IMG/VR virus record: IMGVR_UViG_3300006751_000008
Location: 2,363-66,362 of that record
Direction: 5' to 3' (one strand)
Source of the DNA: a virus
DNA: 64,000 nucleotides
The position numbers were made by a program, and so were the translations under genes. How positions within the stretch are numbered: the stretch's first letter is position 1; every line of letters begins with the position of its first letter. This document shows, piece by piece, positions 1 through 64,000 of the stretch. The notes beneath the pieces are model-generated. The model saw only the letters and a list, made by a program, of their open reading frames with translations. It did not search any database and had not been told where the DNA came from.

Positions 1-2
1 GT

Positions 3-2015
3 TTACAGGGGGAACGTCCCGATACATTCCTTATGAAAAAGTGGGTGTGGGGACTTGTAGGAAGCAAAGCACCCAATAGTTTAGAAGGGCGACAGAACTA
101 CATAGAGGGCATTGATCTTGTCACTAGGACGTTGGATATCTGCCACACTCCAGAGGATGTCCTTGCGGCTGTCCAAGACCTTGCGTTCCTTCGCTCTGGT
201 TACGAATACACCGACTCCGTTCAAGCAACGCACGGGTACACGCCTGGAATACGTTCGCAGACTCCTGCCGGAATAAGCAGGTATCGCAGCGAGTCCTATA
301 GTCACCACCAAGAAGAGCGTACCTATAAGACGGTCAGTAGTGAATACAGTACGCTGAAGACGGCTGCTGGAGAGATGAGCCGAAGCGATGTAAAGAGTAA
401 GCTAGATAGTTTAGGGGATCGTTTCTATCGTGCCGTAGTACAGAGAAAGCGTTCCAAGAAGGATCTAAAAGACTTCGAGCAGATACGGTTGTGGGGCATC
501 AGCGTAGTTGAAGCGGGCGTCCATGGCGGTCCTGGTGGGTTCATTGATACGACAACAGACCTTGACTGGGCTGACGCCAGAGCAGCTACAGGGTCAAACC
601 TTCCAGAAGAAGAGATGTGGCGAGATCTTGGTGTTCGAGAAGAGGCTAGTCAGAAGGCCAAAGAGAAAGCCAAAGAGAACAAAACAGAGAAGCTCGCAAA
701 CCGATGGAGCAGAGAGGTTCCAGACGATGTTATGCGTAGCGGTAACGTCAAGAAGGTAGAGAAAGCCGACGCCAAAAAGATGGCGGAAGACTTCAACCTG
801 ACAAATGTACAGTTCGGTAAATACATTAGCGACTCTGACGCAGAGCACCACTTGAAGAACTGTCATGGTGCTTTGTATGATTTGGCTGAGATGATGGACG
901 CCAAGGATACGGACATCTCCATGAAGGGTCGTTTGGCTATTGGTATCGGTGCTCGTGGGCGCGGACGCGCTGCCGCGCATTACGAACCTAGCCGGAAGAT
1001 TATCAACCTGACAAAGTTTGCAGGTGGCGGAAGTCTCGCCCATGAATGGGGCCACTTCATGGACAACATTCTAGCAGAAGGCATGAACCTCAAAGGCGTG
1101 GATGCAAAGACTGCACCTAATGTAAGCGACTCAATGGCCAAGTATTTCGATACAGAGGTCATGATAAACAAATTCATGGCGAACAAGCCCGTGTCTGAGG
1201 TGGAGCGTATGCGTCCTGTTCTTGAGGCATTCCGCGAGGTGTGGGCAGCGATGCGCTACGATAGTGTAGAGACACGCAATAGATATATGTATGGCGAGGG
1301 TTATGTAGACGTGGAGGTAGGCGTTGGAGAGACCAAGTTTGCTACTCACTCTGACGCTATGGGTGACTATTGGTCACGACCTCACGAGATGTTTGCACGC
1401 GCTTTCGAGAGCTATATCTCGGACAAGCTGGAGGCCAAGGATCGAAGCAACTCGTACCTAGTCGCAGGAGTAAATACGGCCTACGCGGTAGCGGGGAAGA
1501 TGGTCCAGCCCGATCCTGTGGCGATGGCAGCTTGGCGTACCCGAGAAAGAGAGCACAACGCGAAGCACAAAGCAGCACAAGCAGAGCATTTCAAAGAAGA
1601 GTTCACGAGAGCCGAAGAGGTACTACAAGCTGCTTGGGACGATTGGAATCAGGAATGCTCTATTCAAGCGCAGGCTATTCTCGCTACAGGGAAGCGGCGT
1701 TCAGAGAGTAAAGCAATGAGCGATGCTCGATACACGCCCGAGGCCCAGGCTAAGGGGAATGTTTGGCATACCCTCAACGCGCAGAAGAAAGCGATGCAGA
1801 AAGCAATGGATGAAGTAATGCCTCCTGTGCCTTTCCCGGAAGAGAGGCCCCAACCAGAAGCGGCGCAGCCTTATCCGATGGGAGAAGAGCGCAAGAAGAT
1901 AAATGCCTCGTTCGACAAGTTGGTTGCTGTGTTGAAAGCAGCGGATGCGCTGTCCAAGGCTCTTCTACGAATACAACGTCTACAGACGTTCTCAGACTTG
2001 ATCGGGGGTAAATAA
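3..2015 (+). CDS. Large polyvalent protein with LPD1 zincin-like metallopeptidase domain (5'-truncated by window)
   Basis: GRLAIGIGARGRG..AAHYEP..IINLTK..GGGSLAHEWGH (HExxH) and YWSRPHEMFARAFE motifs; the frame is open from position 3 upstream of the ATG at 33. Confidence 0.85.
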   Translation, partial: LQGERPDTFLMKKWVWGLVGSKAPNSLEGRQNYIEGIDLVTRTLDICHTPEDVLAAVQDLAFLRSGYEYTDSVQATHGYTPGIRSQTPAGISRYRSESYSHHQEERTYKTVSSEYSTLKTAAGEMSRSDVKSKLDSLGDRFYRAVVQRKRSKKDLKDFEQIRLWGISVVEAGVHGGPGGFIDTTTDLDWADARAATGSNLPEEEMWRDLGVREEASQKAKEKAKENKTEKLANRWSREVPDDVMRSGNVKKVEKADAKKMAEDFNLTNVQFGKYISDSDAEHHLKNCHGALYDLAEMMDAKDTDISMKGRLAIGIGARGRGRAAAHYEPSRKIINLTKFAGGGSLAHEWGHFMDNILAEGMNLKGVDAKTAPNVSDSMAKYFDTEVMINKFMANKPVSEVERMRPVLEAFREVWAAMRYDSVETRNRYMYGEGYVDVEVGVGETKFATHSDAMGDYWSRPHEMFARAFESYISDKLEAKDRSNSYLVAGVNTAYAVAGKMVQPDPVAMAAWRTREREHNAKHKAAQAEHFKEEFTRAEEVLQAAWDDWNQECSIQAQAILATGKRRSESKAMSDARYTPEAQAKGNVWHTLNAQKKAMQKAMDEVMPPVPFPEERPQPEAAQPYPMGEERKKINASFDKLVAVLKAADALSKALLRIQRLQTFSDLIGGK

Positions 2016-3658
2016 TGGCTTGGTATGATTTCATTCTTGGAAAGAAAACGGGCGCGTTAGAAGTTATCGAGAAGGGTAACTATAACGGAGCAAAGGCCTC
2101 GGAAGGGCCTGCTCCTCTTCCCAAGTCTTGGGAGATAGACGCGGGCGACTATGCTTTCTCTGAGATGCAAGCCGCTCTTGGGATTGATACGCAAGAGGGA
2201 GCAAACGGGCTCGATTTCAAGACACTCCGAACGATGTCTCGTATCCCTCTGATTAGCGCGATCATCAACACTCGAATCAATCAGGTCGCGGAGTTTTGCA
2301 TACCGCAACAGACGCCCTATTCTTTGGGATATCGTATTGTCTTACGTGATCAGAAGGACGACCCAAGCCCTGCCGATGTCAAACGCATTGAAGAAATGAC
2401 CCGTTGGGTTTCTACCTGTGGAGACACACGTCTTGGGTACGATAACCGCTTTGAGACTTTTATTCGTAAGGTTCTCCGTGACAGTCTTGTTTTTGATCAG
2501 GCTTGTTTCGAGGTGGTCAAGACGCGAGGGGGGAAGATTGCCGGGTTGCTTGCTGTGGATGCTAGTACCATTCGACGAGCTAAGTTGTCAGAAAAGGAAA
2601 TAAAGTCCGGTCGGTACGATCCTGCGAAGACCGGGTATGTGCAGGTACTAAGCCAGAAGAAGGTCGCTGAGTTCGATAGTGACGAGTTGGTTTTCGGTGT
2701 ACGGCGTCCACGGACGTGGATCAAAAGCAACGGCTACGGATATCCAGAGCTTGAAGAGCTTATCCGAGTTGTGACGAACCTGCTCAACGCAGAGAACTTC
2801 AACGCGAACAACTTTACTCACGGTATGCACGTCAGTGGTATCTTGGCTGTCAAGTCTAAGATGAACCCCCAGCTATTCCGTAGCTTCCGGCGTGAGTTCT
2901 ACGCGATGCTTTCGGGCGCAGCAAATGCACACAGAACACCTATCATCCAGCTAGACCCGGAAAACAAGGAAGAGCTACAGCAGGTGAACATGAGCCAATC
3001 CAACAAGGATATGGAGTTCACTTCGTGGTTGAGTTTCTTGTTACGTCAAGCATGTATGGTGTACGGAATGGACGCGGCAGAGCTTGGTTACCAGTACGGT
3101 AACGAAAATCAGACCAGTTCCATGAACTCAGGCGGTCCCGGAGACCAACTGACGTATTCGCGAGAGCGTGGTCTACGCCCGATGCTTCGGTCAGTCCAAT
3201 CGTGGATAAACAGCGGAGTCATCTGGAAGATTGATCCTGAACTCATGATCGAGTTCGTAGGTTTCGATTCGATGTCCGAGAGCCAGAAAGTAGACCTGGA
3301 TATAAAGGCTTGCCAGAACTTCCGAACGATCAACGAGACCCGCGCCATGTACGACTTGGAGCCGTTGGAGTCTGCTGTTGGTGATATGATCATGAACGCC
3401 AGCTACATGAATACAGCTTCCATGATGGACGCGCAGGAAGGTGGCGACGAAGAAGGTGCAGGCTTTGAAGGTGGCGAAGGTGGCGACGAAGAAGGTGCAG
3501 GCTTTGAAGGTGGCGACGATGAAGGCGCGGACTTTGGAGGCGACGACGACTTCGACGTAGACAAACTATTGTCTGGGATAGGCGGAGAGACCGAGAAGGT
3601 CCAGAAGAGCCTGAAACGCAAGCCGAAGATAACATCGGTCACTGTGGAGGTAGAATGA
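2015..3658 (+). CDS. Portal protein
   Basis: 547 aa; portal-like segments (VLRDSLVFDQACFE, NGYGYPELE, KDMEF, ERGLRPML, RTINETRA); position at start of head module. Confidence 0.93.
   Translation: MAWYDFILGKKTGALEVIEKGNYNGAKASEGPAPLPKSWEIDAGDYAFSEMQAALGIDTQEGANGLDFKTLRTMSRIPLISAIINTRINQVAEFCIPQQTPYSLGYRIVLRDQKDDPSPADVKRIEEMTRWVSTCGDTRLGYDNRFETFIRKVLRDSLVFDQACFEVVKTRGGKIAGLLAVDASTIRRAKLSEKEIKSGRYDPAKTGYVQVLSQKKVAEFDSDELVFGVRRPRTWIKSNGYGYPELEELIRVVTNLLNAENFNANNFTHGMHVSGILAVKSKMNPQLFRSFRREFYAMLSGAANAHRTPIIQLDPENKEELQQVNMSQSNKDMEFTSWLSFLLRQACMVYGMDAAELGYQYGNENQTSSMNSGGPGDQLTYSRERGLRPMLRSVQSWINSGVIWKIDPELMIEFVGFDSMSESQKVDLDIKACQNFRTINETRAMYDLEPLESAVGDMIMNASYMNTASMMDAQEGGDEEGAGFEGGEGGDEEGAGFEGGDDEGADFGGDDDFDVDKLLSGIGGETEKVQKSLKRKPKITSVTVEVE
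3437..3514 (+). repeat. Perfect 39-bp tandem repeat x2 (EGGDEEGAGFEGG) in acidic portal tail
   Basis: gaaggtggcgacgaagaaggtgcaggctttgaaggtggc at 3437-3475 and 3476-3514, followed by a degenerate partial copy. Confidence 0.9.
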
Positions 3659-6600
3659 TGAGTAACCTTTTCTCAGATATAGTGAAGGGCGGCAAAGAAG
3701 GCGGGACATACACAAGCCGCAAGCGTGTCCTGAAGAAAGACCCAAAGACAGGTCGGATGTCCTGGGGTTGGGGGGATTACAAGTACACAGAGAAGAAGAA
3801 GAAGAAGAAGCAAAGCACCGCAAGTGATGGCGAGAAGTCTACGAAGAAGAAGACGAAGACCGTATCTGAAGGAGCTTCGGTAGATGAAGGCAAGACCTCT
3901 TTAGAGCTTGTACGTGAAGCGATGAAGGCTGCGGGACTGCATGAGCATGTCATACGCGCAAAGGTAAAGCACGAAGGCCAAACATTGGCAGATGTCGCTG
4001 CGGAAGCCAAAGAAGCGCGAAAGAAGATAGAAGACGAAAAAGCAGACAGAAGAGCAAAGCGGGAAGAGGCGCAGAAGAAGAAGCGAGAAGAACGGGCGAA
4101 AGAGTCTGTAGTAGATGCAGTAGAGGAAGATACAGCGGTAGAGGCTCTAAAGGATCAGGAAGAGGTTGTAGAGACCGTAGATACAACCGTGGACCCCGTA
4201 GAGATGGCGCAGAGAGGACTGGTCCGGTTGGTTCGTAAGAACAAAGACGGGATCGAAGTGGCTAAGTGGGTGACGGGACAGACATACCAATTCCACAAAG
4301 AGAACAAAACGGAGTTTTGGGACACGACCGATGCTCCTGTTTCTGAAGCCGGAAGTAAGGCGCGTCGAGAGGCAGGAGAGAAGCTAAGAAAAGAACAGAC
4401 AGAAGAAGAGAGTAAGGTTCTCGCTGCCGAAGAGTTCGATATGGGTAACCTTGTTGAGCTAGAGGCTTTCAAGGTTTCGGAGAACAGACCTCCGAACTTC
4501 CTCGGACTTATTGCACAGGCGGGTGTAGAGGGAGATCCTCTCAGTCTTGAGCAGTACCGAAAAGGCCCGTTTACCAACTACCGAATAGACGCGACGGCTC
4601 TGCGTAATACAACCCTTCCTTCTGGAGAGTACAACATAAAAGACCTGACGCCTCTACAGCTACTCCTACACACAGGAATGCTGAACAGGCCCCCTGAAGG
4701 TCCACTAAATAACTTCCAGGAAGAGTTTTTCTTCACACTTGTAGGCAGGAAACAGAGGTACTCTCAGCTTTCTCCAGCGATGAAGAACATCTACGCGCCT
4801 ATTGCTAGGAACCTAGCCGGTTGGTGGACGAACCTCACAGATACCGAGAGACAGGCGTTTTGGGACACCTTTGTGGACGAGGATTGGCAGACTACTGTCG
4901 GTAAGGTCGCAGACAAACGGCACGAGAACGCTGATATGCCTCTTCCAGAGGGTATGAACAAGTTCAAGGAGAAGGGATATAACTTCCATGAATACCAACG
5001 AAAAGCTGTAAACTTTGGCGACACAGCCGGACGTGCGATTTGGGCTATGGAGATGGGACTAGGAAAGACTCTCGCCGCTATCGGGCTCTTCCACCAACTC
5101 CGCCAACGTGGGGAGGCAGACCGTATGTTTGTTACCGCACCTCTTTCGGCACATGGTTCGTGGGAGGAGCACTTTCGAGACTTTTCCGACTTGGGGGACG
5201 ACGCCGATAAAAAGACAGGCAGGTTGAAGAAGGGGAAAACAATCATCCTAACAGGAGCTTCCAAGAAGCAACGCCTAGCTGCTTACGAGGCTTGGGATAA
5301 AGGGGAGACCAAGGCCCTGGTTGTCTCTCCAGATACAGTCGCAAAAAGGTGGGTAGAGACTCCTGGGGGTCTAGCCCTCAATCCTGAAAAAGACCAGCAC
5401 GATATACCGGGTAGGTGGGAAGAAGAAGAAGGGAAGAAAAGACCGAAGAGTCCTGAGGCCCAAACCGTAGAAGCGGAACGGAAACAGGCCCTGAAGGATT
5501 ATCCCGATGGTACGTCTATCCGTATCACAGACTCCAGCGGCAAGCCGCGTCGGTACTTCAAGAAGCAGGGCGGGCAGTGGTACGCAGGGGACGCTTTCAA
5601 ATACAAAGAAAACTCCTACAGGACAGTAACAATACAGGAAACTGAAGCTACCTATGCTCTTATAGAAGGACACGAGACAGACACAGAACAAGGTGTCATG
5701 GACGAGATGGAGAATCAGGTTCTTGCTTATCTCCGGGACTACAAAAACTCTCGTAATACTCGTGGCTTGAAAGAGCCTTCCATGGAAGTCATTCCTCCCG
5801 ATTCTGATTATCAGATCATCAAGAACATGATGGAGAAGCACGGGGAGACTACTCTCCGAAACGCGGACGAGCTACACAAGTTCAAAGACCCGAAGAGTGC
5901 TCGTGGTTCTGGTTTCGTAGATGCCATATGCAGACCTCCCGGACGAGTGGTCGGTATGACAGGGACGCCCAAACCTAACGGGGCAGAAGACTTCTACCAT
6001 ATCGTAAATGCAATCGCTCCAGGCACACTTGGGGACACAGTAAACGATTTTGCTGACCGATACTGCTACACAGACGGCAAAGACAAGAAGATCCTCGGTT
6101 TCCGCCCGGAAGAGTTGGGCACTATGTACCGAGATTCTGGTTCTGCTTTCTTCGCACGAACTACGGCTGACCCGGATGTAGAGATCAATCTTCCAGAGCG
6201 TGTCGATCTATCTCCCCGTATCCCAATGGATGATGTGCAGGAGCAGATCTCCACACGCCTTGTCGAGTGGATGAAGATCCGAAACAAGATAGCTAAACTG
6301 AACGCCATGGCTCGGGGGAGCGGGGAGCGCGCAGAAGCGGCAGGAATGGAGGCAGAAGCCCTCCAAGATATGCTTGATAAAGCCCGTTCTGACGACAACG
6401 AAGATGCAATCGACAGGACAGCAGCGAGGGCTGCTCCATGGGATCACCAAGTGGCTATGATGAGGTGGCAACAGCTTGCTGTAGATCCTAGCCTCCTGGA
6501 TACACAAGAAGGGTATTCCCGAAGGTTTTCCGACGACTATCCTGGGTACTTGAGCCCGAAACTCGATAACGTGACAGACGCCTGTATGACGCACCTTACG

Positions 6601-7254
6601 CAGAACCCGGATAAAGGGGCTGTGATTTTCTGCGAATACAACGGTGGGGTACGAGGAGCAAAGCAGGCACTCATTCAGAAGGGCCTGAAAGAGTCCGATA
6701 TCGGTGTCTACACAGGAGCTACTTCGGCAACGAAAAGAAGACAGCTACAAGCGGACCTAAACGAAGGAAGAATCAAGGTTCTTGTTGGTAACACAGCAGC
6801 ACTTGAGACCGGGGCAAACCTTCAGAAAAGAGCGAACTGGGTGGGTATGCTAAACACTCCTTGGGATCCTGCGCGTCTTACGCAGTCCATTGCGCGTGTT
6901 ATGCGACAAGGACAGACAAGCAAGGTTATCGTCTACCGTCCTACTGGGTCGCACGTCGAAGAGCAGATCGAGAGGACAGTATCCAGGAAGATTCTGCAAG
7001 CGGCACAGGCCACAGGCAGGACAATGGAGGCGGACGACGCTATTGCGGGCTCTATGCGTAAACCAGGGAAAACCGGAACCTCTGCCGCCATTATCGCGGA
7101 GATTCTCGGAGTAGACCCTAGCGTATTCATGAAAGCCGACGAGAAGCCTCTCACTCTTGAAGAGATGGAAGAGAAGCAGCGTGAAGATGCCGATAGAGCA
7201 CGCGAACGAGCAGCTAAGAAAGCGGCCAAAGAAAACGCAGAAGGAGAAAAGTAA
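3655..7254 (+). CDS. SNF2/SWI2-family SF2 helicase, probably virion-associated (DarB-like position)
   Basis: Motif I MEMGLGKT, Walker B DELH, motif III MTGTP, motif V ETGANLQ, motif VI QSIARVMRQGQ; lies between portal and MuF genes. Confidence 0.9.
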   Translation: MMSNLFSDIVKGGKEGGTYTSRKRVLKKDPKTGRMSWGWGDYKYTEKKKKKKQSTASDGEKSTKKKTKTVSEGASVDEGKTSLELVREAMKAAGLHEHVIRAKVKHEGQTLADVAAEAKEARKKIEDEKADRRAKREEAQKKKREERAKESVVDAVEEDTAVEALKDQEEVVETVDTTVDPVEMAQRGLVRLVRKNKDGIEVAKWVTGQTYQFHKENKTEFWDTTDAPVSEAGSKARREAGEKLRKEQTEEESKVLAAEEFDMGNLVELEAFKVSENRPPNFLGLIAQAGVEGDPLSLEQYRKGPFTNYRIDATALRNTTLPSGEYNIKDLTPLQLLLHTGMLNRPPEGPLNNFQEEFFFTLVGRKQRYSQLSPAMKNIYAPIARNLAGWWTNLTDTERQAFWDTFVDEDWQTTVGKVADKRHENADMPLPEGMNKFKEKGYNFHEYQRKAVNFGDTAGRAIWAMEMGLGKTLAAIGLFHQLRQRGEADRMFVTAPLSAHGSWEEHFRDFSDLGDDADKKTGRLKKGKTIILTGASKKQRLAAYEAWDKGETKALVVSPDTVAKRWVETPGGLALNPEKDQHDIPGRWEEEEGKKRPKSPEAQTVEAERKQALKDYPDGTSIRITDSSGKPRRYFKKQGGQWYAGDAFKYKENSYRTVTIQETEATYALIEGHETDTEQGVMDEMENQVLAYLRDYKNSRNTRGLKEPSMEVIPPDSDYQIIKNMMEKHGETTLRNADELHKFKDPKSARGSGFVDAICRPPGRVVGMTGTPKPNGAEDFYHIVNAIAPGTLGDTVNDFADRYCYTDGKDKKILGFRPEELGTMYRDSGSAFFARTTADPDVEINLPERVDLSPRIPMDDVQEQISTRLVEWMKIRNKIAKLNAMARGSGERAEAAGMEAEALQDMLDKARSDDNEDAIDRTAARAAPWDHQVAMMRWQQLAVDPSLLDTQEGYSRRFSDDYPGYLSPKLDNVTDACMTHLTQNPDKGAVIFCEYNGGVRGAKQALIQKGLKESDIGVYTGATSATKRRQLQADLNEGRIKVLVGNTAALETGANLQKRANWVGMLNTPWDPARLTQSIARVMRQGQTSKVIVYRPTGSHVEEQIERTVSRKILQAAQATGRTMEADDAIAGSMRKPGKTGTSAAIIAEILGVDPSVFMKADEKPLTLEEMEEKQREDADRARERAAKKAAKENAEGEK

Positions 7255-8429
7255 TGGACGCCTGGACTGCACGAGAACGTATTTTAGCGTTGACGCCTGT
7301 AAACGGTGTGAAGCCTGTGGACATAGGGGCCGATACACGTATCCGGCTATGCCGGGAGCTTCGCGACTACCTCGACAAGGAGCCTGATGCTTTTATTCCG
7401 ACGTGGTTGTTGGAAGAGACAGAGCACAAGATGAACCGAAAGAAGAACCACGTTGTTCTTTCTGATGCTCAAATGGAGGCTGTCCAAGACCTAGATAAGG
7501 CTCTTCTGTACGAGGATATCATCGACTTGGTAAAGGACGCAGGCGGATGGGAAGCAGGTCCACGGGGAGGTACGCGAAGGAAACTACCTTCTGGAAAGTG
7601 GCAGTACAAACGTGGAAGTTCCGGTGGATCGGGTAAAGCAGAAAAGAAAGAAGATGGCGGTGAGGAACAGTCCTCCCACGGACAGCGATCCATGGAAGCT
7701 GTTGCGGAAGCCATGGATAAGCTACCGGACGGGTGGTCTGTCACTACAGAAGACGGAGTAAAGTTCACCAAGAAGGACGGCAAATGGTACCCCGAGGGTT
7801 CAGACGAGCCTATAGGAAGCGAGGAGTTCGTAGACAAGGAGACAGACAAGAACGGCGGGGACAAGGACAAAGCCAAGAAAGAGTTCAACGGAAGCAAGTT
7901 GAAACTAGCCCTGTGGGCATTCCTGGAAAACTTTATTCCGGGCAAGGACAAAGACTGGAAGATCCAGGTACAGGAGAGAGCAGGGCATACGGACGAGGAC
8001 GAGAAGAAGGACGAGAAGAAGGACAAGAAGGGTACAGAAGAAGCGGAGAAAGCGGAAGAAGACAAAGCTGATGACTCCAAGGAAGAAGACAAAGCCGACG
8101 CCAAGGACGAGGACTCTAAGGAAAAAGACTACTACCGTTACCCTCTTGGTCGTCCAACCAAGGGATCCAAGGACAAGGACAAGAAGAAGACTGAACGGTA
8201 TAAGCCGATGCGGGACAAGCTAGAGAGGCACCCCGACGCACCTAAAGGCTACGAGCCCGATCCGAAGAGTAGCAACAACGCCCATGTAGATAAGACAGGC
8301 AGAAAGTGGTATCCGCCTCCTCAGAAAAAGGAGACTGCCAAGAAGGAAAAGACGAAGAAAAGTCTTTCTTTTTCTGATGCTCTTCACGAGGCTTTTGTGC
8401 AGATGGAGGAGGCGAAGAAAAGACGATGA
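7254..8429 (+). CDS. Lys/Asp/Glu-rich putative internal head protein
   Basis: 391 aa, coupled by overlap to both neighbours in the head operon; low-complexity charged sequence. Confidence 0.6.
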   Translation: MDAWTARERILALTPVNGVKPVDIGADTRIRLCRELRDYLDKEPDAFIPTWLLEETEHKMNRKKNHVVLSDAQMEAVQDLDKALLYEDIIDLVKDAGGWEAGPRGGTRRKLPSGKWQYKRGSSGGSGKAEKKEDGGEEQSSHGQRSMEAVAEAMDKLPDGWSVTTEDGVKFTKKDGKWYPEGSDEPIGSEEFVDKETDKNGGDKDKAKKEFNGSKLKLALWAFLENFIPGKDKDWKIQVQERAGHTDEDEKKDEKKDKKGTEEAEKAEEDKADDSKEEDKADAKDEDSKEKDYYRYPLGRPTKGSKDKDKKKTERYKPMRDKLERHPDAPKGYEPDPKSSNNAHVDKTGRKWYPPPQKKETAKKEKTKKSLSFSDALHEAFVQMEEAKKRR

Positions 8430-8704
8430 AAGTACGCATAGAAGAAAGCAGAGAAGGCGAGTTTGCAGAGTCAACCGCGCCAGAACTTCGAGAGAAAGCG
8501 TCTATGGCGGTAGGTCAGGTTCTGACCGAGCTAGGATACTGTGGCGACCTTTTATCTAAGGCCCTGCCTCGTGGCGGAGAGATCCAAGTGCTAGAGGAAC
8601 TAACACAGATGACTGTACGCGCATACGAAAGCCGTATGGACCACCTTCGGAAAGCTATTGAGAGCAAGGTCAAAGAGGCCATAGAAGAAGGTATCGAAGA
8701 CTAA
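8426..8704 (+). CDS. Hypothetical head-module protein
   Basis: 92 aa; ATGA and TAATG overlaps with neighbours; GGAGG upstream. Confidence 0.7.
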   Translation: MKVRIEESREGEFAESTAPELREKASMAVGQVLTELGYCGDLLSKALPRGGEIQVLEELTQMTVRAYESRMDHLRKAIESKVKEAIEEGIED

Positions 8705-9807
8705 TGAAAAGGCGTGTCCTACAGGCTGCGATCAAAGAGATGATTCGGGCACACCACGAGGCGTTCGTCGTGGAGCTTTTCGGACATGACAGATTGGGTA
8801 TGTCTGCCGAAGAAGTACAGCGTATGTGGGACAAGGATCTGTTTCCAGACACTAATATGCTGACTGGTGTAAAGATCTCTATTCCAGGGTTCCCCGATGA
8901 AATAAACCCTTTCGAGTACACAGCACTCGTCGCAGCAGCCACGAATAAAGCCACACAAGAGCAAAGAGAAGCGATGCGTAGCTGGGGTATCAATGAGTGG
9001 AACAAAGAGCTAGGCAAGGAGCTTGCCATAAGAGAGGGGGAGGAAGCGGCATACGCAGAAGAGAGGGCACGAAATATACCTAGACCCGAGAGCCAAGCTG
9101 TCGGAACTATCGATATGTCTCGCCCGTCTTCCGCAAGCACAGAGCCTCCCACAACACGGTTGCCGATAGCTCCAGAAGTACAGGTTCCAGAATGGATGAG
9201 TTCTCAGGAGGAGTATTCCTATAAACAGGCTATCACCTTCGCGGGGGACTTCTGCCGAGGGCTTGGTAACAAGGTATCCGATAAAGCAGACGAATGGCTT
9301 GTAGAGTCGTGGGATGGCGAACAGATAGTAGACGAGGTGGACCCCGAAAAACGAGCAGCCATTCTCGCGATAATAAGAGAGAAAGTAGCCGACGCGATAA
9401 AGTACCACTGGGACAGCGGCCAACTGTCACGGGAGTTGGCGAATGCTACCGGGAACTGGTCTCATAACTGGGAGATGATCGCTAGAACAGAACTACAGGC
9501 TGTCTATAACGAGGGCATGGTTCTAGGAGCAATCGAGGACTACGGCAAGGACGCCCGAATAGCAAGACTCCCAGAGACAGACGCTTGCAGACACTGCGAA
9601 CGGTTGTTTTTGGATGGGGGAGGATTACGGATCTTCCCTGTACAGGAACTGATTGGTAACGGAACAAACGTAGGAAGACGCGCAGCATCTTGGGTTGCGA
9701 CAATCTTTCCGGTTCACCCAAACTGTCGTTGTGATACTATCGCTGTGCCTCCGGGATTCACAGTGACCCGAGATGGCAGACTTAGGAGAGATTCCGAGCA
9801 GTCATGA
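8704..9807 (+). CDS. Head morphogenesis protein (MuF / SPP1 gp7-like)
   Basis: IARTE, ACRHC and PVHPNCRC motifs. Confidence 0.9.
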   Translation: MKRRVLQAAIKEMIRAHHEAFVVELFGHDRLGMSAEEVQRMWDKDLFPDTNMLTGVKISIPGFPDEINPFEYTALVAAATNKATQEQREAMRSWGINEWNKELGKELAIREGEEAAYAEERARNIPRPESQAVGTIDMSRPSSASTEPPTTRLPIAPEVQVPEWMSSQEEYSYKQAITFAGDFCRGLGNKVSDKADEWLVESWDGEQIVDEVDPEKRAAILAIIREKVADAIKYHWDSGQLSRELANATGNWSHNWEMIARTELQAVYNEGMVLGAIEDYGKDARIARLPETDACRHCERLFLDGGGLRIFPVQELIGNGTNVGRRAASWVATIFPVHPNCRCDTIAVPPGFTVTRDGRLRRDSEQS

Positions 9808-10526
9808 AAACCTTCGACTCATTTAGCGTCTGGACGCCCTTTGTGGCCTTAGAGAAGTCCACAAGTAAGCCAGAGCCTATGACCGGGCGGATTGGCGGGA
9901 TTATATCCACTGAGTCCAAGGATTTCCAAGGTGAGACCATCACGCAAGATGGCGTTGATTGGTCCTACTTCATGAAACACGGCTGGTTCAACTACGAACA
10001 CCAGTCCGGTCCAGAGAATGTTCTAGGGCACCCCGAAAGAGTCACAACGCAAGGGGGACAAACCCGTGTCGAAGGAGTCCTTTATTTGGCAAAGTCCAAA
10101 GCAAAGGAAGTGTTCGAGACTGCTGTTGCTATGTCGAAGGCGGGCAATATGCGGACGTTGGGCTTTTCTGTCGAGGGACAGGTACTAGCCCGTGAGAAAA
10201 AAAGAATCTTAAAGGCGCGGGTTTTAAATGTTGCTGTGACAGCACATCCAGTCAACCCGGACGCCCGTTTAGAGGTGCTCTCCAAGGCGTTTGGTGCGTC
10301 TGTTGGGTACCAGACCCCTGCCGGAATGGGCGGCAATATCACGCCACTCATTCCGCAATCCCTTGAGTCGGTTCCAGCTATCGCTTCTTATGGAGTATAT
10401 GCTATGAACCGCAAGAAGTTGACAACACAAGACCTAGCCCTGCTTTTGCACACTACGTTTCCGAAGTTGGGTCATGGAAAGGCGTTGTCTATAGCTGTAG
10501 AGATAGCCCGAGTCGTTGGAAGATGA
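9804..10526 (+). CDS. Prohead protease
   Basis: ISTESKDFQGE, GWFNYEH, LGFSVEG and VAVTAHPVN motifs of SPO1/Twort-type prohead proteases. Confidence 0.9.
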   Translation: MKTFDSFSVWTPFVALEKSTSKPEPMTGRIGGIISTESKDFQGETITQDGVDWSYFMKHGWFNYEHQSGPENVLGHPERVTTQGGQTRVEGVLYLAKSKAKEVFETAVAMSKAGNMRTLGFSVEGQVLAREKKRILKARVLNVAVTAHPVNPDARLEVLSKAFGASVGYQTPAGMGGNITPLIPQSLESVPAIASYGVYAMNRKKLTTQDLALLLHTTFPKLGHGKALSIAVEIARVVGR

Positions 10527-10562
10527 AGGGCCTAACCCCAAAGTTACAGAGGAGATCTTCTG

Positions 10563-11225
10563 ATGAATCAAGAGCTTTATGACCAACTGGTCAATGAAGG
10601 TATCTCTGAGGCCAAAGCCGAGCAGATCGCCAAGTCACACTTTTCGGGCACTCCCGAAGAGGTTGATGCGGAACGATTGACCAAGGCTCTTGAAGGCCTT
10701 CGGGAAACCATGGAAACACCCGTAGACAACAACCCACAGGTTGACTTCTCAGCACCGCCCGTTGCGGACTCTGATGATGTCATCGGTGCTATCACGAAAG
10801 GCGCAGATGCAATCTTGTTCCAAAACCGTGAGCACATCGAGCAACGTGCTTCCGCACAGGGCACCATTCTTGACCGACAAGACGCGCTTCTCAAAGGCGT
10901 TCTTGCACTAGGTGAGTCTGTTGCACGTATCGAAGAGCGTTTGGATGGTAAAATCGCCAAGGGTCTTAGCAATGTCGCTAACCAACTGGCGCAGCCTGCT
11001 GCACATCGTTCAGTACAGTCGGAACTTATCCCCACACCGGGCGATGTTTCGCGTACCCAGGACATGAGTCGTGCAGAGGTTATCTCCAAGGCTCTACACG
11101 AAATGGGCGGTACACAAGACTGGAGCCGTCGCGCTAGTCTTGGACAGGCCGTTTCTCTTCTCGAAAGTGGCGAAAATGTCGCTACTGTCGTGTCTAACTA
11201 TAATATCACCACAACGGCCAGCTAA
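10563..11225 (+). CDS. Capsid scaffolding protein
   Basis: Helical acidic 220 aa between protease and capsid; several [LI]xK[ASG] putative cleavage sites; AGGAG RBS. Confidence 0.7.
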   Translation: MNQELYDQLVNEGISEAKAEQIAKSHFSGTPEEVDAERLTKALEGLRETMETPVDNNPQVDFSAPPVADSDDVIGAITKGADAILFQNREHIEQRASAQGTILDRQDALLKGVLALGESVARIEERLDGKIAKGLSNVANQLAQPAAHRSVQSELIPTPGDVSRTQDMSRAEVISKALHEMGGTQDWSRRASLGQAVSLLESGENVATVVSNYNITTTAS

Positions 11226-11239
11226 GGAGGCTCTAAGCC

Positions 11240-12685
11240 ATGATCGACATTCCTCAGATCAACAGTATGGTGCCGGTCAGTGACCTGATGCAACTAAATG
11301 ACGCTTTGCGAAAAGCGGCAAATGTTGGATATCAGACTCCTGCTGGCATGAGTTCGGGGAGCGTTTCTCCCCTTGTACCCCAATCCATCGAGGGAACGCT
11401 TGCAAGCGCGACCTATACGATGAAGGAACTGGTTCTCTGGCCAGCACTTGCCAAGCGCAATGTCGGACAGACGGTCCACGAGTTCACTCGTATCGAAGAT
11501 CACGGTCTTGATTTGGACCCGTTTATCGCTGAAGGCGGTGGCGGAATTACCAATAAAAGCGTGTATTCTCGGGAGTTTGTGAAAGTCAAGTACCTTGCCG
11601 AACGTCGGGAAGTCAGCGATGTCGCGGCGATGGTAAATCCCATCATCGGGCCATCCCCCAACGTGCTCGCAGAGGAGACCACACGCGGTACTCTCCGTCT
11701 TCTTCAGAAGCTGGAGCGTGCTTTGTTCTATGCTGACAGCAGCCTGAATGACCAACAGTTTGATGGTCTTTTCAAGCAGCTTCAGACAGGTACTCCAGGC
11801 AACTTCTTCGACTTGAAGGGTGAAGGCCTTACGGTTGACTTCCTACAAGAGAAGTTGGGCGAGACTTACGGTGCTCCGAACTTCGGGCGCGTAGACACCA
11901 TTTATGTGGAGCCTCGCGTACACCAAGACCTGATTCGTCAGACTGTTTCTTACGGTCGTCACGATCAGCTTCAGGTGTCGGATGCGTCTAGTCTTACTTT
12001 CGGAACTCGTAACCTGTCTATCATGGCTCCTTACGGTCCTGTTAGCATCAAGGCTGCTCCGTTCCTTCATAAGGCACACGCAGTACCTTCAGCGGGTTCT
12101 GGTACCTCTGATGCCCCGGCTGCTCCGACGTTGAACTCGGCGGCGCATAACGGCGGTAACTCAGATACTTCGGCTTGGGCTGCTTCGGATGTAGGCGACT
12201 ACATTTGGTCGGTTGTTGCAGTAAACGACAAGGGCTTCTCTGCCCCTGCTGCTTCTAACCAACTTGGTGTATCTGCTGGACAGAAGATTGAGTTCTCAAT
12301 CAATGACCATGCTGTTACAACAAAGGCCGATCCCGATCCAGCAAACGCTGTGAAGTATTACCGTATTTATCGTTCCGATAAGAACGGTGCTGCAAACACC
12401 GGAAAGTTGATCAAGGAGATTCCTGTCAACGCAGACGGTGCGACTTTTGCTGGAAATGCTGGAACGCTTGTCGCAGACTTGAATGGTGATGTTCAGAGCA
12501 CATCCAATGTGTTGGCTCTGTCTCACGATCCAGGTGTTTGCGAAGTGGTACGGCTCTTGGATTTCATGCGTCGTCCGCTCGCGGAAGTTGCTACAACCAA
12601 GCCTTTCCTCTTGATGTTATTTTTGAGCCCGATTTTGAAGGTAAGTTCCAAGACTTTCGGGATAAAGAACGTAGGCATCGGTTAG
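11240..12685 (+). CDS. Major capsid protein (SPO1/Twort-like, with beta-sandwich insertion)
   Basis: LRKA..GY propeptide boundary, LERALFYADS..QFDGL, Fn3-like insert (WSVVAVNDKGFSAP, YYRIYRS), C-terminal IKNVG; AAGGAGG RBS. Confidence 0.92.
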   Translation: MIDIPQINSMVPVSDLMQLNDALRKAANVGYQTPAGMSSGSVSPLVPQSIEGTLASATYTMKELVLWPALAKRNVGQTVHEFTRIEDHGLDLDPFIAEGGGGITNKSVYSREFVKVKYLAERREVSDVAAMVNPIIGPSPNVLAEETTRGTLRLLQKLERALFYADSSLNDQQFDGLFKQLQTGTPGNFFDLKGEGLTVDFLQEKLGETYGAPNFGRVDTIYVEPRVHQDLIRQTVSYGRHDQLQVSDASSLTFGTRNLSIMAPYGPVSIKAAPFLHKAHAVPSAGSGTSDAPAAPTLNSAAHNGGNSDTSAWAASDVGDYIWSVVAVNDKGFSAPAASNQLGVSAGQKIEFSINDHAVTTKADPDPANAVKYYRIYRSDKNGAANTGKLIKEIPVNADGATFAGNAGTLVADLNGDVQSTSNVLALSHDPGVCEVVRLLDFMRRPLAEVATTKPFLLMLFLSPILKVSSKTFGIKNVGIG

Positions 12686-12690
12686 CAGTC

Positions 12691-12743
12691 AGGCGTTTTT
12701 TGAGCGAGGCCGATTTCACCCCGGCCTCGCTCAAAGCCTTTCT
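12691..12743 (+). terminator. Rho-independent terminator after capsid gene
   Basis: Stem tttgagcgaggccg (12699-12712) / cggcctcgctcaaa (12722-12735), 9-nt loop, short T-rich tail. Confidence 0.75.
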
Positions 12744-12799: not shown

Positions 12800-13093
12800 A
12801 TGGCTTGGCACCACGATAACCTTAGAAACTGTTCATATTGCCTCGGCAATACGATGTTTGAAGTTGATGGAAAAGGACTCATGTCCCCTCAACCTTCTAA
12901 GGAAGACGTTGTGTCCCAGTGCCAGCAACATCCCCGGATTCTCTGGATTGAACCGGAGGCAAAGCCTGCGAAGAAAGTGCCTGCTGCCAAGGCGGTAGAG
13001 CCTGAGAAGAAGGCTGCGAAAAAACCTGCTGCAAAGAAAGCAGCTTCCAAGAAAACCCCGGCCAAGAAAGCCTCTTCTAAGAAGGCGAAATAA
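12800..13093 (+). CDS. Small protein with histone H1-like Lys/Ala/Pro C-terminal tail
   Basis: C-terminus KKAAKKPAAKKAASKKTPAKKASSKKAK; GGAG RBS. Confidence 0.75.
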   Translation: MAWHHDNLRNCSYCLGNTMFEVDGKGLMSPQPSKEDVVSQCQQHPRILWIEPEAKPAKKVPAAKAVEPEKKAAKKPAAKKAASKKTPAKKASSKKAK

Positions 13094-13587: not shown

Positions 13588-15048
13588 ATGGCGTCGATAT
13601 TCGACGAGCTAACCCCCGGCTGGCTGAAGGACCGCTTTCTTGTAGGCGTTGACCTCACACTAGATGATGGCACGGCTTACCCGGAAGCGGTCTTCACACA
13701 GGCCGTCGCTGGGGCTGTTCGATACATTGAGCACGAACTAGGTATCGTGCTCGACCCGGTGAAGGTCACGAGCGAGAAACACGACGCCTTTGAACTCAAT
13801 AGGTCGGGCTTCTGGCCGTTTCGCCTGGATATGCGTCCTGTGTGGACGGTTACGGGCTTTCGTATCAAATACGGTAGCTACGAACCTCTCTCCATACCTC
13901 TCTCTTGGATACACACGGTGTCTCCAATACATGGGCAGGTAAATCTTATTCCTTCGGAGGAATCGCTAGGAGGCTACCTGTACAGTTCCGGTATGCCGTT
14001 AATCCTCGGGGACGCTTTCCAACCCCTTATGTACGTTCCAGGCTACTTCGAGTTCGATTATACGGCAGGGTTTGCCACATTGAATGGCACAGCGACCTTT
14101 GCCGATGGGGTGGTAACAGCAACCGTTCCAGTTTCTCCGCAAGCACTCATGCCTAACTACGACGTTGAGTTGACTCTTGGGAGTCCTAATAACGGCGCAG
14201 CAGGACCAGTCGTAACCGAACGAACACGGGACAACTTCACGATCTCGCTAACGACTCCCCCCGAAGGCGGGAGCGCGTCCGTATCTTGGTCTTTGAGCGC
14301 AGTACCGGCGGACCTGAAGCAGGTTATCGGGCTGAAAGCTGCTGCTCTTCCTTTGGATATCGCGGGCGATCTCTTGGTTGGTGCGGGAATCGCTTCCACA
14401 AGTGTAGGCGCGGATGGGCTGCATATGTCCGTCAATACAACTTCTAGTGCAACCAACTGTCTACATGGTGATACCAAACTGCTTCTTTCTGATGGTACGA
14501 CAGACACGATAAAGAGCCTAACCGAACAGCACGGAAGAGACGGGACTGTCTCCGTGAAGTGTCTTGATGCGAACGGGGCAGAGACTACGGGCACAGCTAC
14601 CAACTTCCATGTGACAGGTAGCAGTGACAAGATGTACGACATCCTCTTGTCCAACAATATGCGGGTAGTGTGTACATACAACCATCCTTTCCGAATCGCT
14701 GCTTTCAATGCGAAAGACGGCACAGTCGTCCATAACTACTACAAGCACGCGGAAGAGCTTCAGGTAGGCGATGAACTCGCTACTGTTATGACTTCCAACG
14801 AAGGACTGCATCCCGACGATCCGCGTCGATATACGAACATCTATGTGAAGAAGATAGATCCCGCAATACCAGAAGACAGAGTGTACGATTGCACTGTAGC
14901 AACGCACCATAACTTTGCTCTGGATAGCGGTATTGTCGTTCACAACAGCGGATATGGTGCCCGCGTCTTGCAGTTTGAACGAGAACTAAAGGCACTGCTC
15001 CCAGCTTTGCGGGCTAAATACAAGTCTGTGAATATGGGAGTCATCTAA
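13588..15048 (+). CDS. Head-tail adaptor / head completion protein, intein-containing
   Basis: Position after capsid; IEHELGI, DYTAGF, PADLKQVIG, GAGIAS motifs; intein at aa 291-453. Confidence 0.8.
   Translation: MASIFDELTPGWLKDRFLVGVDLTLDDGTAYPEAVFTQAVAGAVRYIEHELGIVLDPVKVTSEKHDAFELNRSGFWPFRLDMRPVWTVTGFRIKYGSYEPLSIPLSWIHTVSPIHGQVNLIPSEESLGGYLYSSGMPLILGDAFQPLMYVPGYFEFDYTAGFATLNGTATFADGVVTATVPVSPQALMPNYDVELTLGSPNNGAAGPVVTERTRDNFTISLTTPPEGGSASVSWSLSAVPADLKQVIGLKAAALPLDIAGDLLVGAGIASTSVGADGLHMSVNTTSSATNCLHGDTKLLLSDGTTDTIKSLTEQHGRDGTVSVKCLDANGAETTGTATNFHVTGSSDKMYDILLSNNMRVVCTYNHPFRIAAFNAKDGTVVHNYYKHAEELQVGDELATVMTSNEGLHPDDPRRYTNIYVKKIDPAIPEDRVYDCTVATHHNFALDSGIVVHNSGYGARVLQFERELKALLPALRAKYKSVNMGVI
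14458..14946 (+). mobile_element. Mini-intein (Hint domain, 163 aa, no endonuclease)
   Basis: Block A CLHGDT, block B TYNHPF (TxxH), block F VYDCTV..HNF, block G VVHN followed by Ser(+1). Confidence 0.93.
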
Positions 15049-54700: not shown

Positions 54701-54720
54701 AAGTTCCCCCAAAGGTTGCG

Positions 54721-63711: not shown

Positions 63712-64000
63712 ACAGGTGTTTGACGGGTTTGGCGACCCCTATGCAGACAACATAGATCAGCCAATAGTGAAGGAGGAGAGCGTGGTAGATAGACACATGA
63801 CGGCTTGGCGAGTTCCAAAGGGCGAACCTCGTCTGAGAGCTAGAAGGCGGGCTAGAGAAAATGAGAAAGCGCAGAAAGCGGCTTATCCTTGCGGTGATAG
63901 TGGTATTGGCGATTCTGGTCCTTCAGATGGTCGTAACGCAGAGGCTTGCGAGTTACTGAAGGCCCTACTAATGGAGAGAGGGCTGTCCAAGGAAGAAGCA
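63704..64000 (+). CDS. Hypothetical protein, 3'-truncated by window end
   Basis: ATG 63704 overlapping the previous stop; frame MREQVFDG...ELLKALLMERGLSKEEA open to the end. Confidence 0.5.
   Translation, partial: MREQVFDGFGDPYADNIDQPIVKEESVVDRHMTAWRVPKGEPRLRARRRARENEKAQKAAYPCGDSGIGDSGPSDGRNAEACELLKALLMERGLSKEEA

Follow-up and report, generated by a model that had tools for sequence, protein, structure and literature searches.

The internal head proteins of bacteriophage T4, IPI-III and Alt, display a short N-terminal leader, the capsid targeting sequence (CTS), which ends in the cleavage motif of the prohead protease gp21 and is removed by that enzyme. The T4 prohead protease cuts after Glu, at L/I-x-E. 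In giant phages many head-internal proteins, the substrates of SPN3US gp245 and phiKZ gp175, are described in the available accounts as cut by the prohead protease at a short motif. The motif in these phages is small-x-Glu. In phage P1 the first 30 residues of DarB are sufficient for loading of a reporter into the capsid, and the capsid protein is cut after Glu120; the available text reports no consensus among the Dar N-termini (PMC9024508). Phage-type polyvalent proteins have been predicted to be packaged in the capsid and proteolytically processed (Iyer, Burroughs, Anand, de Souza and Aravind 2017, PMC5512222). The present analysis concerns a 64,000 nucleotide (nt) stretch of viral DNA, termed the window (IMG/VR virus record IMGVR_UViG_3300006751_000008, positions 2,363 to 66,362), in which three genes of the polyvalent type lie among the head genes and share a boundary element composed of a short helix, a lysine site and, at module starts, a small hairpin. 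We give a probability of about 0.6 to the reading in which this element labels the capsid cargo of an SPO1-type head with a T4-like "address and cut here" leader, processed by a prohead protease of the gp21 fold.

Nine head-module open reading frames (ORFs) occupy window positions 3-12685, all on the + strand and mostly overlapping. Coordinates are window positions unless another locus is named, and L-numbers (L001-L053) designate the loci compared, which are relatives unless named otherwise.

3..2015, + strand: polyvalent protein, C-terminal 670 amino acids (aa), open at the 5′ end, with a zincin-like HEWGH domain and LPD1
1041..1055, + strand: HEWGH (HExxH) of the zincin-like metallopeptidase domain, inside the CLCA_X match
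2015..3658, + strand: portal (phrog_12, 1.4e-43)
3655..7254, + strand: SNF2-family ATPase, 1199 aa, candidate cargo (phrog_62, 8.6e-60)
7254..8429, + strand: 391-aa charged protein, candidate cargo, no family match
8426..8704, + strand: 92-aa conserved protein, no family, always immediately upstream of MuF
8704..9807, + strand: MuF / SPP1 gp7-like minor head protein, weak matches, without the lysine motif
9804..10526, + strand: prohead protease, gp21/assemblin fold (phrog_1028, 1.1e-44)
10563..11225, + strand: scaffold-like protein, no family
11240..12685, + strand: capsid gene (phrog_752, 1.8e-55)

A preliminary description of this DNA had placed three non-structural-looking genes among portal, MuF, protease and capsid, and both the order of the nine ORFs and the family scans agree with it. 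Its name for the first product, "LPD1 peptidase", is right as to LPD1 (Pfam E 2e-20), but the peptidase part is a separate zincin-like HEWGH domain which precedes LPD1. Polyvalent proteins also bring together zincin-like metallopeptidase (MPTase), LPD1 and SWI2/SNF2 modules amid head genes (portal, MuF, protease, capsid). They differ from the present case, where domains of this class (LPD1, HEWGH, SNF2) are on separate ORFs and the modules occupy three ORFs with the portal gene placed among them.

The preliminary description also proposed two peptide tags, "FSD" and "LxK". All of the motif and FSD peptides that it quoted are present in window proteins; however, the two are halves of one element, a short helix ending D-h-h-K-[GA], because the acidic residue of that motif is the D of FSD. 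Besides the ends of ORFs, the element marks module boundaries within giant ORFs. Where the element opens a module it is followed by a small basic/aromatic beta-hairpin, G-x-K-Y-x-x-R-x-P ... G ... [YW]-x-Y-x-Y, which in the 391-aa protein and its relatives has the variant form W-x-x-GPRGG-x-RRK. Copies in the window are as follows, the slash marking the lysine site.

3655..3792, + strand: SNF2 N-terminal cassette MMSNLFSDIVK/GGKEGGTYTSRKRV...WGWGDYKYTE, with helix, lysine site K11/G12 and basic hairpin
7488..7610, + strand: internal cassette of the 391-aa protein, DLDK/ALLYEDIIDLVKDAGGWEAGPRGGTRRK...KWQYK, aa 79-119, GPRGG variant
8364..8390, + strand: LSFSDALHE, degenerate C-terminal tag that begins 21 aa from the end of the 391-aa protein
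1929..2012, + strand: polyvalent C-terminal tail with VLKA, LSKA, the tag TFSDLIGGK and the stop codon (from the sequence)

An AlphaFold2 (AF2) model of the SNF2 cassette displays a helix at residues 7-10 and strands at 24-28 and 35-39. The motif had been said to lie near the termini of all three cargo proteins. This is so at the polyvalent C-terminus and the SNF2 N-terminus, but DLDKAL of the 391-aa protein is at aa 79-84, with DLDK/A eight residues ahead of the internal hairpin cassette. In L003 the comparable position reads ELEKG...IDLVKDAGGW, and the position of LSFSDALHE reads MSYSDVLKG. The similar FSD peptides are not the product of a recent DNA duplication, an origin that was considered and rejected, as their codons (TTCTCAGACTTGATC, TTCTCAGATATAGTG and TTTTCTGATGCTCTT) differ at synonymous and non-synonymous positions.

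Relatives display the same element at the same kinds of position. Their large non-structural ORFs near the portal gene begin MEWLSDLIKGREGGKYKSRK..., MFSFYKVILDLIKARTHKYVRRVP... and MRVFSTLWDLVKAKRGE..GSKYIMRIP..., and some of their ORFs end ...GFSDIVKAFKP, ...SFFTDLIKGKG or ...TFSDLIKGRRS; the last two, together with GFFEALLGGKQ, are C-termini of polyvalent proteins. The window-derived pattern F[STN][DE][ILVA][ILV] has 16 matches in 128,136 residues of the other loci, and eight are terminal, two in the first 15 residues (0.69 expected) and six in the last 25 (1.15 expected), although two of these six are one sequence on two contigs. A composite pattern, [FYW][STFN].{0,5}[DE][LIVA][LIVFW]K[GAS], gives 33 match starts in 148,316 residues, compared with 1.6 in shuffled sequences (maximum 6). 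Every match is within 20 aa of the N-terminus, within 12 aa of the C-terminus or directly before a hairpin, and none is elsewhere; 12 of the 33 are protease N-termini. Internal cassettes are present in giant ORFs of L007 (aa 341), L039 (aa 177 and 979) and L043 (aa 1070 and 1352), and in L039 (826 aa) and L053 (3021 aa) the element joins MuF to further modules.

Three variations at these loci are recorded here. At L007 2907-4994 a single stop codon and two further codons lie between two ORFs that share a reading frame; the first ends ...GFSDIVKAFKP and the second begins MAEQPGGKYIKR. As the ORF end and start flank that point, the stop splits a cassette between its lysine site and its hairpin, which may reflect fission, read-through or an error of sequencing. 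L008 has unrelated ORFs with signal-peptide-like starts between portal and MuF. Several cargo-like ORFs of L049 and L050 start with a leader variant, RFLhK[AS]xQLGLFG, in which QLGLFG after the lysine site resembles the bacterial sliding-clamp-binding motif, QLxLF.

The capsid protein supplies the link between the element and a known cut.

11240..11314, + strand: capsid propeptide MIDIPQINSMVPVSDLMQLNDALRK, predicted cut K25/A26 at its end
11315..12685, + strand: predicted mature major capsid protein (MCP), SPO1 / Twort type, by homology

The window capsid aligns from aa 21 with SPO1 gp6.1 (9vel, E 4.7e-22) and with a Staphylococcus phage MCP. Two chains of the Staphylococcus phage capsid, the precursor-length 5lii_P (463 aa) and 9row (439 aa), give alignments offset by exactly 24 residues. 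The deposited mature 9row chain therefore begins at residue 25, after ...EDVVK. The Twort-like PSU6 capsid N-terminus reads ...QFQEDVVK-SFQTGYGITPD..., that of the Listeria Pecentumvirus LMLPA3 reads ...SVQEDALK-SFTTGYGITPD..., and at the aligned place the window capsid has ...LNDALRK-AANVGYQTPAG.... By this alignment LRK/A of the window is the position at which related capsids are trimmed (VVK/S). The capsid of Listeria phage A511 is reportedly cut at a Lys-Ser bond, which is consistent with the LMLPA3 sequence. The capsid cut site is not described in PMC3601020 or PMC5618024. The window capsid and protease share 24-38% identity with their counterparts in Herelleviridae (SPO1, Twort-like and Listeria phages), and the likeness extends beyond family membership (phrog_752 and phrog_1028) to the short propeptide with a Lys cut, inferred by alignment, and to the cut context [ED]-[DA]-h-h-K/S.

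A second copy of the capsid site is within the protease.

10275..10370, + strand: protease linker VLSK/AFGASVGYQTPAG...PLIPQSLES, lysine site and then a capsid N-arm copy

The protease sequence VLSK/AFGASVGYQTPAG...PLIPQS parallels LRK/AANVGYQTPAG...PLVPQS of the capsid (capsid region 11315-11395). This copy of the site and the next approximately 25 capsid residues is present in the C-terminal part of the protease in the window, its relatives and the Staphylococcus and Listeria Herelleviridae; the counterparts are SFMK-SFLTGHSTSPDTQVDAGALRKE in PSU6 and TFMK-SWTTGHGTTPDMQVNAGALRRE in LMLPA3. We know of no earlier description of this copy. When modelled with AF2 the window protease has a predicted local distance difference test (pLDDT) score of 72; the core, aa 1-150, is good, and aa 151-203, which include LSK/A, are below 50, so that the N-arm copy falls in a low-confidence linker beyond the catalytic core. 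H66 and S122 are invariant in 13 relatives. With this model Foldseek returns T4 gp21 as its top match (5jbl, E 1.5e-4, prob 1.0, TM 0.36-0.50), followed by the herpesvirus assemblins. It is plausible that the protease anchors in the procapsid by means of the capsid N-arm copy and then frees itself by a cut of the same rule.

Conservation of the lysine sites is, on these alignments, a stronger test than motif frequency. Relatives were gathered with the portal (19 viral loci), the capsid (1 locus) and the MuF alignment (23 metagenome loci), and after sequences more than 90% identical were dropped the family alignments held 13 portal, 13 p92 (the 92-aa protein), 21 MuF, 18 protease, 13 scaffold and 8 capsid sequences. 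A site was scored as conserved when h-x-K-[ASG] was found within ±2 columns in at least 70% of the sequences. Eight sites pass. When any of the 19 other residues replaces Lys, which makes up 5.1% of these proteins, the number is 0-3. The eight are LRKA of the capsid (8/8), scaffold sites at aa 77 (13/13), 109 (11/13) and 174 (13/13), the portal site at aa 16-19 (10/13), and protease sites at aa 16-19 (17/18), 110-113 (17/18) and 135-138 (16/18). A further scaffold lysine site at aa 39 is found in 9 of 13 sequences, the scaffold also has HR/S at aa 148, and at aa 159-162 of the protease Lys or Arg is present in 13 of 18. The portal and p92 copies are at these positions.

2015-2077, + strand: N-terminal 21 aa of the portal, tag-like MAWYDFILGKK...VIEK/G (from the sequence)
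3599-3610, + strand: VQKS near the portal C-terminus (from the sequence)
8549-8563, + strand: LLSKA of the 92-aa protein, in a variable linker preceding RGGE
8642-8656, + strand: HLRKA of the 92-aa protein, not conserved

Of 24 portal homologues, 19 display h-x-K-[GAS] within the first 32 aa and 16 within the last 40; an N-terminal copy is found in 2 of 19 MuF homologues. No site of p92 (13 sequences) passes the 70% column test, and in its linker h-x-K-[ASG] is present in 12 of 14 relatives when the alignment is read by eye. Not all of the motifs listed in the preliminary description are likely cut sites. Capsid LRKA stands, but the protease copies at aa 108-113 and 133-138 are in the modelled core. 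Since the sites at 110-113 and 135-138 are in a core helix and strand, and aa 6-16 form a strand, these two and the aa 16-19 region are more likely structural than cut sites in the model.

The 229 junction sites and 67 structural sites are similar in composition. Both are acidic at P5/P4, Leu is at P3 in 71% of the junction and 58% of the structural sites, and P1′ is Ala, Gly or Ser in 53, 40 and 7% of the former and 57, 33 and 10% of the latter. On this comparison the two profiles agree beyond what the selection imposed.

The hairpin cassette is distributed well beyond the close relatives. A profile built from 18 instances (44 positions) and searched against 1.84 billion clusters matched 374 cluster representatives at E ≤ 1e-3, 31 of them at E ≤ 1e-10. 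The best 150 of the 374 contain 282 cassette instances, 85 N-terminal and 197 internal, with one copy in 62 proteins, two in 53, three in 27, four in seven and five in one; h-x-K-[GAS] precedes the cassette in 277 of these 282 instances. Pfam scans of 28 cassette proteins found 19 with families known in or beside polyvalent proteins (ddrB-ParB, LPD1, ART-PolyVal, Zeta_toxin, RelA_SpoT, InPase, DNA methylase, PAPS reductase, SNF2/Sno and Topoisom_I) and nine with none. Judged by this domain content the scanned cassette proteins are bona fide polyvalent proteins. No Pfam family covers the cassette in the 28, and six isolated cassettes searched against Pfam at E ≤ 10 gave no match except one chance hit. 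Loci fetched with one representative (L051, L052 and L053) have the same portal/capsid lineage adjoining tagged ORFs. A word-indexed homologue search with SNF2 residues 1-60 returned only the query itself, a tblastn search of phages with the cassette-rich protein P0008 returned one uncultured record and no cultured model, and a locus scan with P0013 found nothing.

Compared with T4, the likeness is in a short N-terminal leader that ends in the protease's cleavage motif, in the sharing of this leader by several unrelated proteins (head-internal in T4, candidate cargo here), in the protease fold, and in one rule, here predicted, for the cutting of capsid, scaffold and protease. The SNF2 start ...FSDIVK/GG ends in the same motif as the capsid ...NDALRK/AA, on sequence evidence. 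The rule itself differs, h-x-K/[GAS] placing Lys before a small residue. In addition, further copies of the leader are found here within giant multi-enzyme ORFs and at C-termini in the close clade, the predicted cut precedes a conserved basic hairpin, and the portal N-terminus has a similar leader. Neither a hairpin cassette nor a polyvalent architecture is described for the giant phages in the accounts available.

In P1 the darB gene adjoins prt and pro, and in the window too a large SNF2-containing protein, putatively of anti-restriction type, is encoded beside portal and protease genes; unlike the Dar proteins as described in the available text, the proteins here have one N-terminal consensus across proteins and phages. 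The families Hdf, DarA, DdrA, DdrB and Ulx were absent from PHROGs and Pfam scans of the window ORFs, scans in which distant relatives could be missed. The P1 DarB N-terminus (P1 locus L047, 17057-17236, − strand) has within its 30-residue signal the sequence SVSEILKY, a weak likeness to [ST]-[DE]-h-h-K that may be chance. As to polyvalent proteins, the processing enzyme proposed here is the prohead protease and not the MPTase, and the boundary element of helix, lysine site and hairpin was not found in the available text of PMC5512222, in which the word "linker" has no occurrence. PSU6 and LMLPA3, both Herelleviridae, have no cargo ORFs between portal and protease; in the window clade this interval contains tagged polyvalent ORFs together with MuF and the 92-aa protein.

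Under the leader reading, the polyvalent protein, the SNF2 ATPase and the 391-aa protein would be phage-type polyvalent modules carried on separate ORFs of the head operon and destined for the capsid. Each module boundary would consist of an amphipathic helix ([FYW][ST]..D-h-h) ending in Lys and then Gly, Ala or Ser, with the hairpin at the module start, and helix and lysine site together would mimic the end of the capsid propeptide. Because the leader copies that end, the prohead protease is proposed to recognize it and to cut after Lys inside the procapsid, by the same h-x-K/[GAS] rule that would apply to the capsid propeptide, to the scaffold, to the C-terminal anchor of the protease itself and, probably, to the portal ends. 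The leader would serve, or would once have served, as an address into the assembling core, as in T4, and the processed cargo fragments would leave with the DNA at infection.

Several observations weigh against this reading. The motif is short. The preliminary description saw it recur in the head proteins, and [LIVM]xK[ASG] is in excess in the nine head-module proteins (29 matches, 16.7 ± 3.9 expected, 29 being reached in 0 of 200 shuffles) compared with the 46 other ORFs of at least 90 aa (31 matches, 37.3 expected). The odds ratio per residue is 2.9 (Fisher p 7e-5), and per lysine the figures are 7.7% and 4.5% (p 0.036). But the excess sits in the structural proteins (18 per 99 Lys), while the three cargo proteins, with 11 per 276 Lys (4.0%, compared with 4.5% in the rest of the genome), are at background, and a helix-type control, LxE[ASG], is likewise raised in the head module (36 compared with 22.7). 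For these two reasons an excess in frequency counts for little by itself. The window's own C-terminal tags, FSDLIGGK and FSDALHE, have no Lys at the expected place, the N-terminus of the window polyvalent protein is missing, the N-terminal "tag" of the protease is a core beta-strand in the AF2 model, and the SNF2 cassette model is of low confidence (pLDDT 59). A complex prediction for the scaffold-like protein with the SNF2 cassette, run without controls, scored 0.00 against a mark of 0.32 and weighs neither for nor against.

The C-terminal copies are a particular difficulty. The tags are conserved in the relatives, but in the wider set the C-terminal copy is absent (1 of 137 by the strict pattern; 17 of 137 by the loose one, with a background of 6.3%), and a general C-terminal tag for the wider family was rejected. 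Only the close clade has the tag, borne by whichever cargo ORF comes last ahead of the portal or 92-aa gene. If it were no more than a cut site, a copy 1-5 residues from a natural C-terminus would have little use, which suggests an independent role for the helix, for example in docking or as a common C-terminal end of cargo. Less likely than not, the cassette may go further and be a portable address label, sufficient to load any protein into the procapsid, the cut leaving functional ends, ...[FS]D-h-h-K on one side and the basic hairpin on the other. The hairpin could then, for example, tether the fragment to the packaged DNA, with the C-terminal peptide as a possible exit or portal-docking signal; functional new ends would explain why an apparently useless C-terminal tag is kept on that last cargo ORF. 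The tag-and-cleave loading system of the preliminary description is thus supported in part, by the conserved tags, the motif at the place of capsid trimming, the gp21 fold and the polyvalent class of the cargo, and not by motif enrichment in the cargo or by a general C-terminal copy.

The searches brought up no cultured relative of this phage, and its best capsid and protease hits share less than 40% identity. A competing explanation is that the three proteins are late cytoplasmic enzymes of replication, recombination or counter-defence which lie among head genes without belonging to the virion, their tags having another purpose or being remnants of ancestral fusions. The gene content between portal and MuF varies among relatives, with unrelated ORFs in L008, and SP-10-like Bacillus phages have SNF2 helicases near their head modules without known packaging. 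However the leader matches the capsid propeptide end, the portal has the tag as well, MuF is fused to cargo by the same element in L039 and L053, and P1 DarB is a precedent; a purely cytoplasmic role is therefore judged quite unlikely. Fortuitous matches to a motif of low information content, in helical proteins rich in lysine, would account for the approximately 17 matches expected from composition and for the raised LxE[ASG] control, but this explanation is largely refuted by the position-specific conservation, by the strictly terminal or junctional placement and by the lysine site in 277 of 282 cassette instances.

Other explanations accept the element and assign it differently. It may be an uncut folded linker or mini-domain, such as a hairpin that binds DNA or a partner and is capped by the helix, in which Lys and the small residue are structural and the capsid likeness is convergent, whether or not the protein is packaged. 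The most conserved columns are hairpin residues (Y19, Y42, Y44 and G33), the architecture is fixed over 282 instances, C-terminal copies gain nothing by cutting and the cargo proteins have no excess of sites, all of which suit such a domain. Against an uncut domain are the P5-P1′ preferences, which match those of the capsid, scaffold, protease and portal sites, ORF boundaries exactly at the element, as in L007, and the spacing between Lys and hairpin, which ranges from 1 to about 8 residues, as expected of a linker rather than of a fold; on balance it is unlikely. Alternatively the embedded zincin-like metallopeptidase would cut the cargo by polyvalent autoprocessing, without the prohead serine protease. 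The HEWGH domain is present, and MPTase autoprocessing before or after packaging was proposed in the available text of Iyer et al. 2017 (PMC5512222). Yet the K/small rule also holds for the Herelleviridae capsid, and the head-module stretches of two such phages, PSU6 and LMLPA3, have no gene of this kind; the site profile is common to the scaffold and the protease's own linker; and LPD1 is in only 7 of 28 cassette proteins, which display no Pfam peptidase family, though Pfam may lack a model for this domain. We consider self-processing by the metallopeptidase very unlikely.

The remaining annotation of the head module is as follows. The CLCA_X (NCBIfam) match to the polyvalent protein is at aa 1007-1125 (E 7.7e-30, below the whole-protein cut-off). 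The SNF2 ORF has the Pfam domains SNF2-rel_dom and Helicase_C and a match to phrog_10089 "DarB-like" (E 1.1e-15) that covers only the helicase C-terminal part (aa 1003-1090), and no methylase domain was found in it by Pfam and PHROGs scans. The 391-aa protein corresponds to the N-terminal part of ORFs of 1464-1762 aa in L007, L009 and L026. The MuF matches are sub-threshold: Pfam E 0.0067 (17.6 bits, cut-off 29.6), TIGR01641 E 2e-4 (21.7 compared with 39.65) and phrog_115 E 6.1e-6. Pfam at E ≤ 10 gave no match for the protease, scaffold-like, 92-aa and 391-aa proteins, and a PDB sequence search with the protease gave none; an atlas look-up with the 92-aa protein was equally uninformative.

The source assembly is a single contig of 66,362 bp and the window starts at its nt 2363. 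Residues 416-458 of the L003 homologue (1977 aa) align to contig nt 1-129, thus about 415 aa of the polyvalent N-terminus are missing. The L003 homologue begins with the cassette, and a similar start is expected for the missing part. The genome is incomplete, as the contig opens inside the polyvalent ORF, family scans of the window ORFs detected no large terminase and an identical SNF2 protein is recorded on a contig of 75,794 bp. The last ORF (63698-64000) is open at its 3′ end and in frame with the first; a circular junction between the two was rejected, since the contig starts inside the polyvalent ORF and the shared frame is coincidental. Megablast of window positions 1-12700 against cultured phages gave no match.

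Directly 3′ of the capsid gene is a 97-aa ORF (12800-13093, + strand) with a tail that is rich in Lys, Ala and Pro and resembles histone H1; its product may be a DNA-binding head-internal or decoration protein. Similar small ORFs also trail the capsid gene in L022, L037, L041 and L043. A 486-aa virion protein (13588-15048, + strand; phrog_772 "tail fiber") has a Hint/intein domain (Pfam Intein_splicing, aa 300-453, E 1.2e-10), and its homologues in L022, L032 and L033 are 315-321 aa in length without the insert. A second helicase of the SNF2/DEAD type (52907-54886, − strand) is located in the replication module near DNA polymerase A, a PD-(D/E)XK nuclease and a D5-like primase-helicase, so that the phage encodes at least one such helicase outside its head module.

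Packaging and processing of polyvalent proteins had already been predicted (PMC5512222), and a capsid signal is proven for P1 DarB (PMC9024508). The shared boundary element, its tie to the prohead protease rule and the hairpin were not found described in Pfam or in the literature surveyed, which consists mostly of abstracts together with the available text of these two papers. The window contributes four points: it ties the element to a capsid cut that experiment has defined, its protease copies the capsid N-arm, its portal has tag-like ends, and C-terminal copies occur that are specific to the clade. If the tagged proteins are loaded, cut and injected, the element would provide a sequence rule to list the proteins delivered with the DNA by a large group of uncultured phages, would tie polyvalent protein processing to the prohead protease, and would offer a compact tag for loading foreign proteins into SPO1-type capsids. 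Should the cassette also be a portable label, the injected proteins of uncultured phages could be read straight from sequence; the 28 cassette proteins scanned include ART, zeta-kinase, RelA/SpoT, ParB, methylase, SNF2 and topoisomerase domains.

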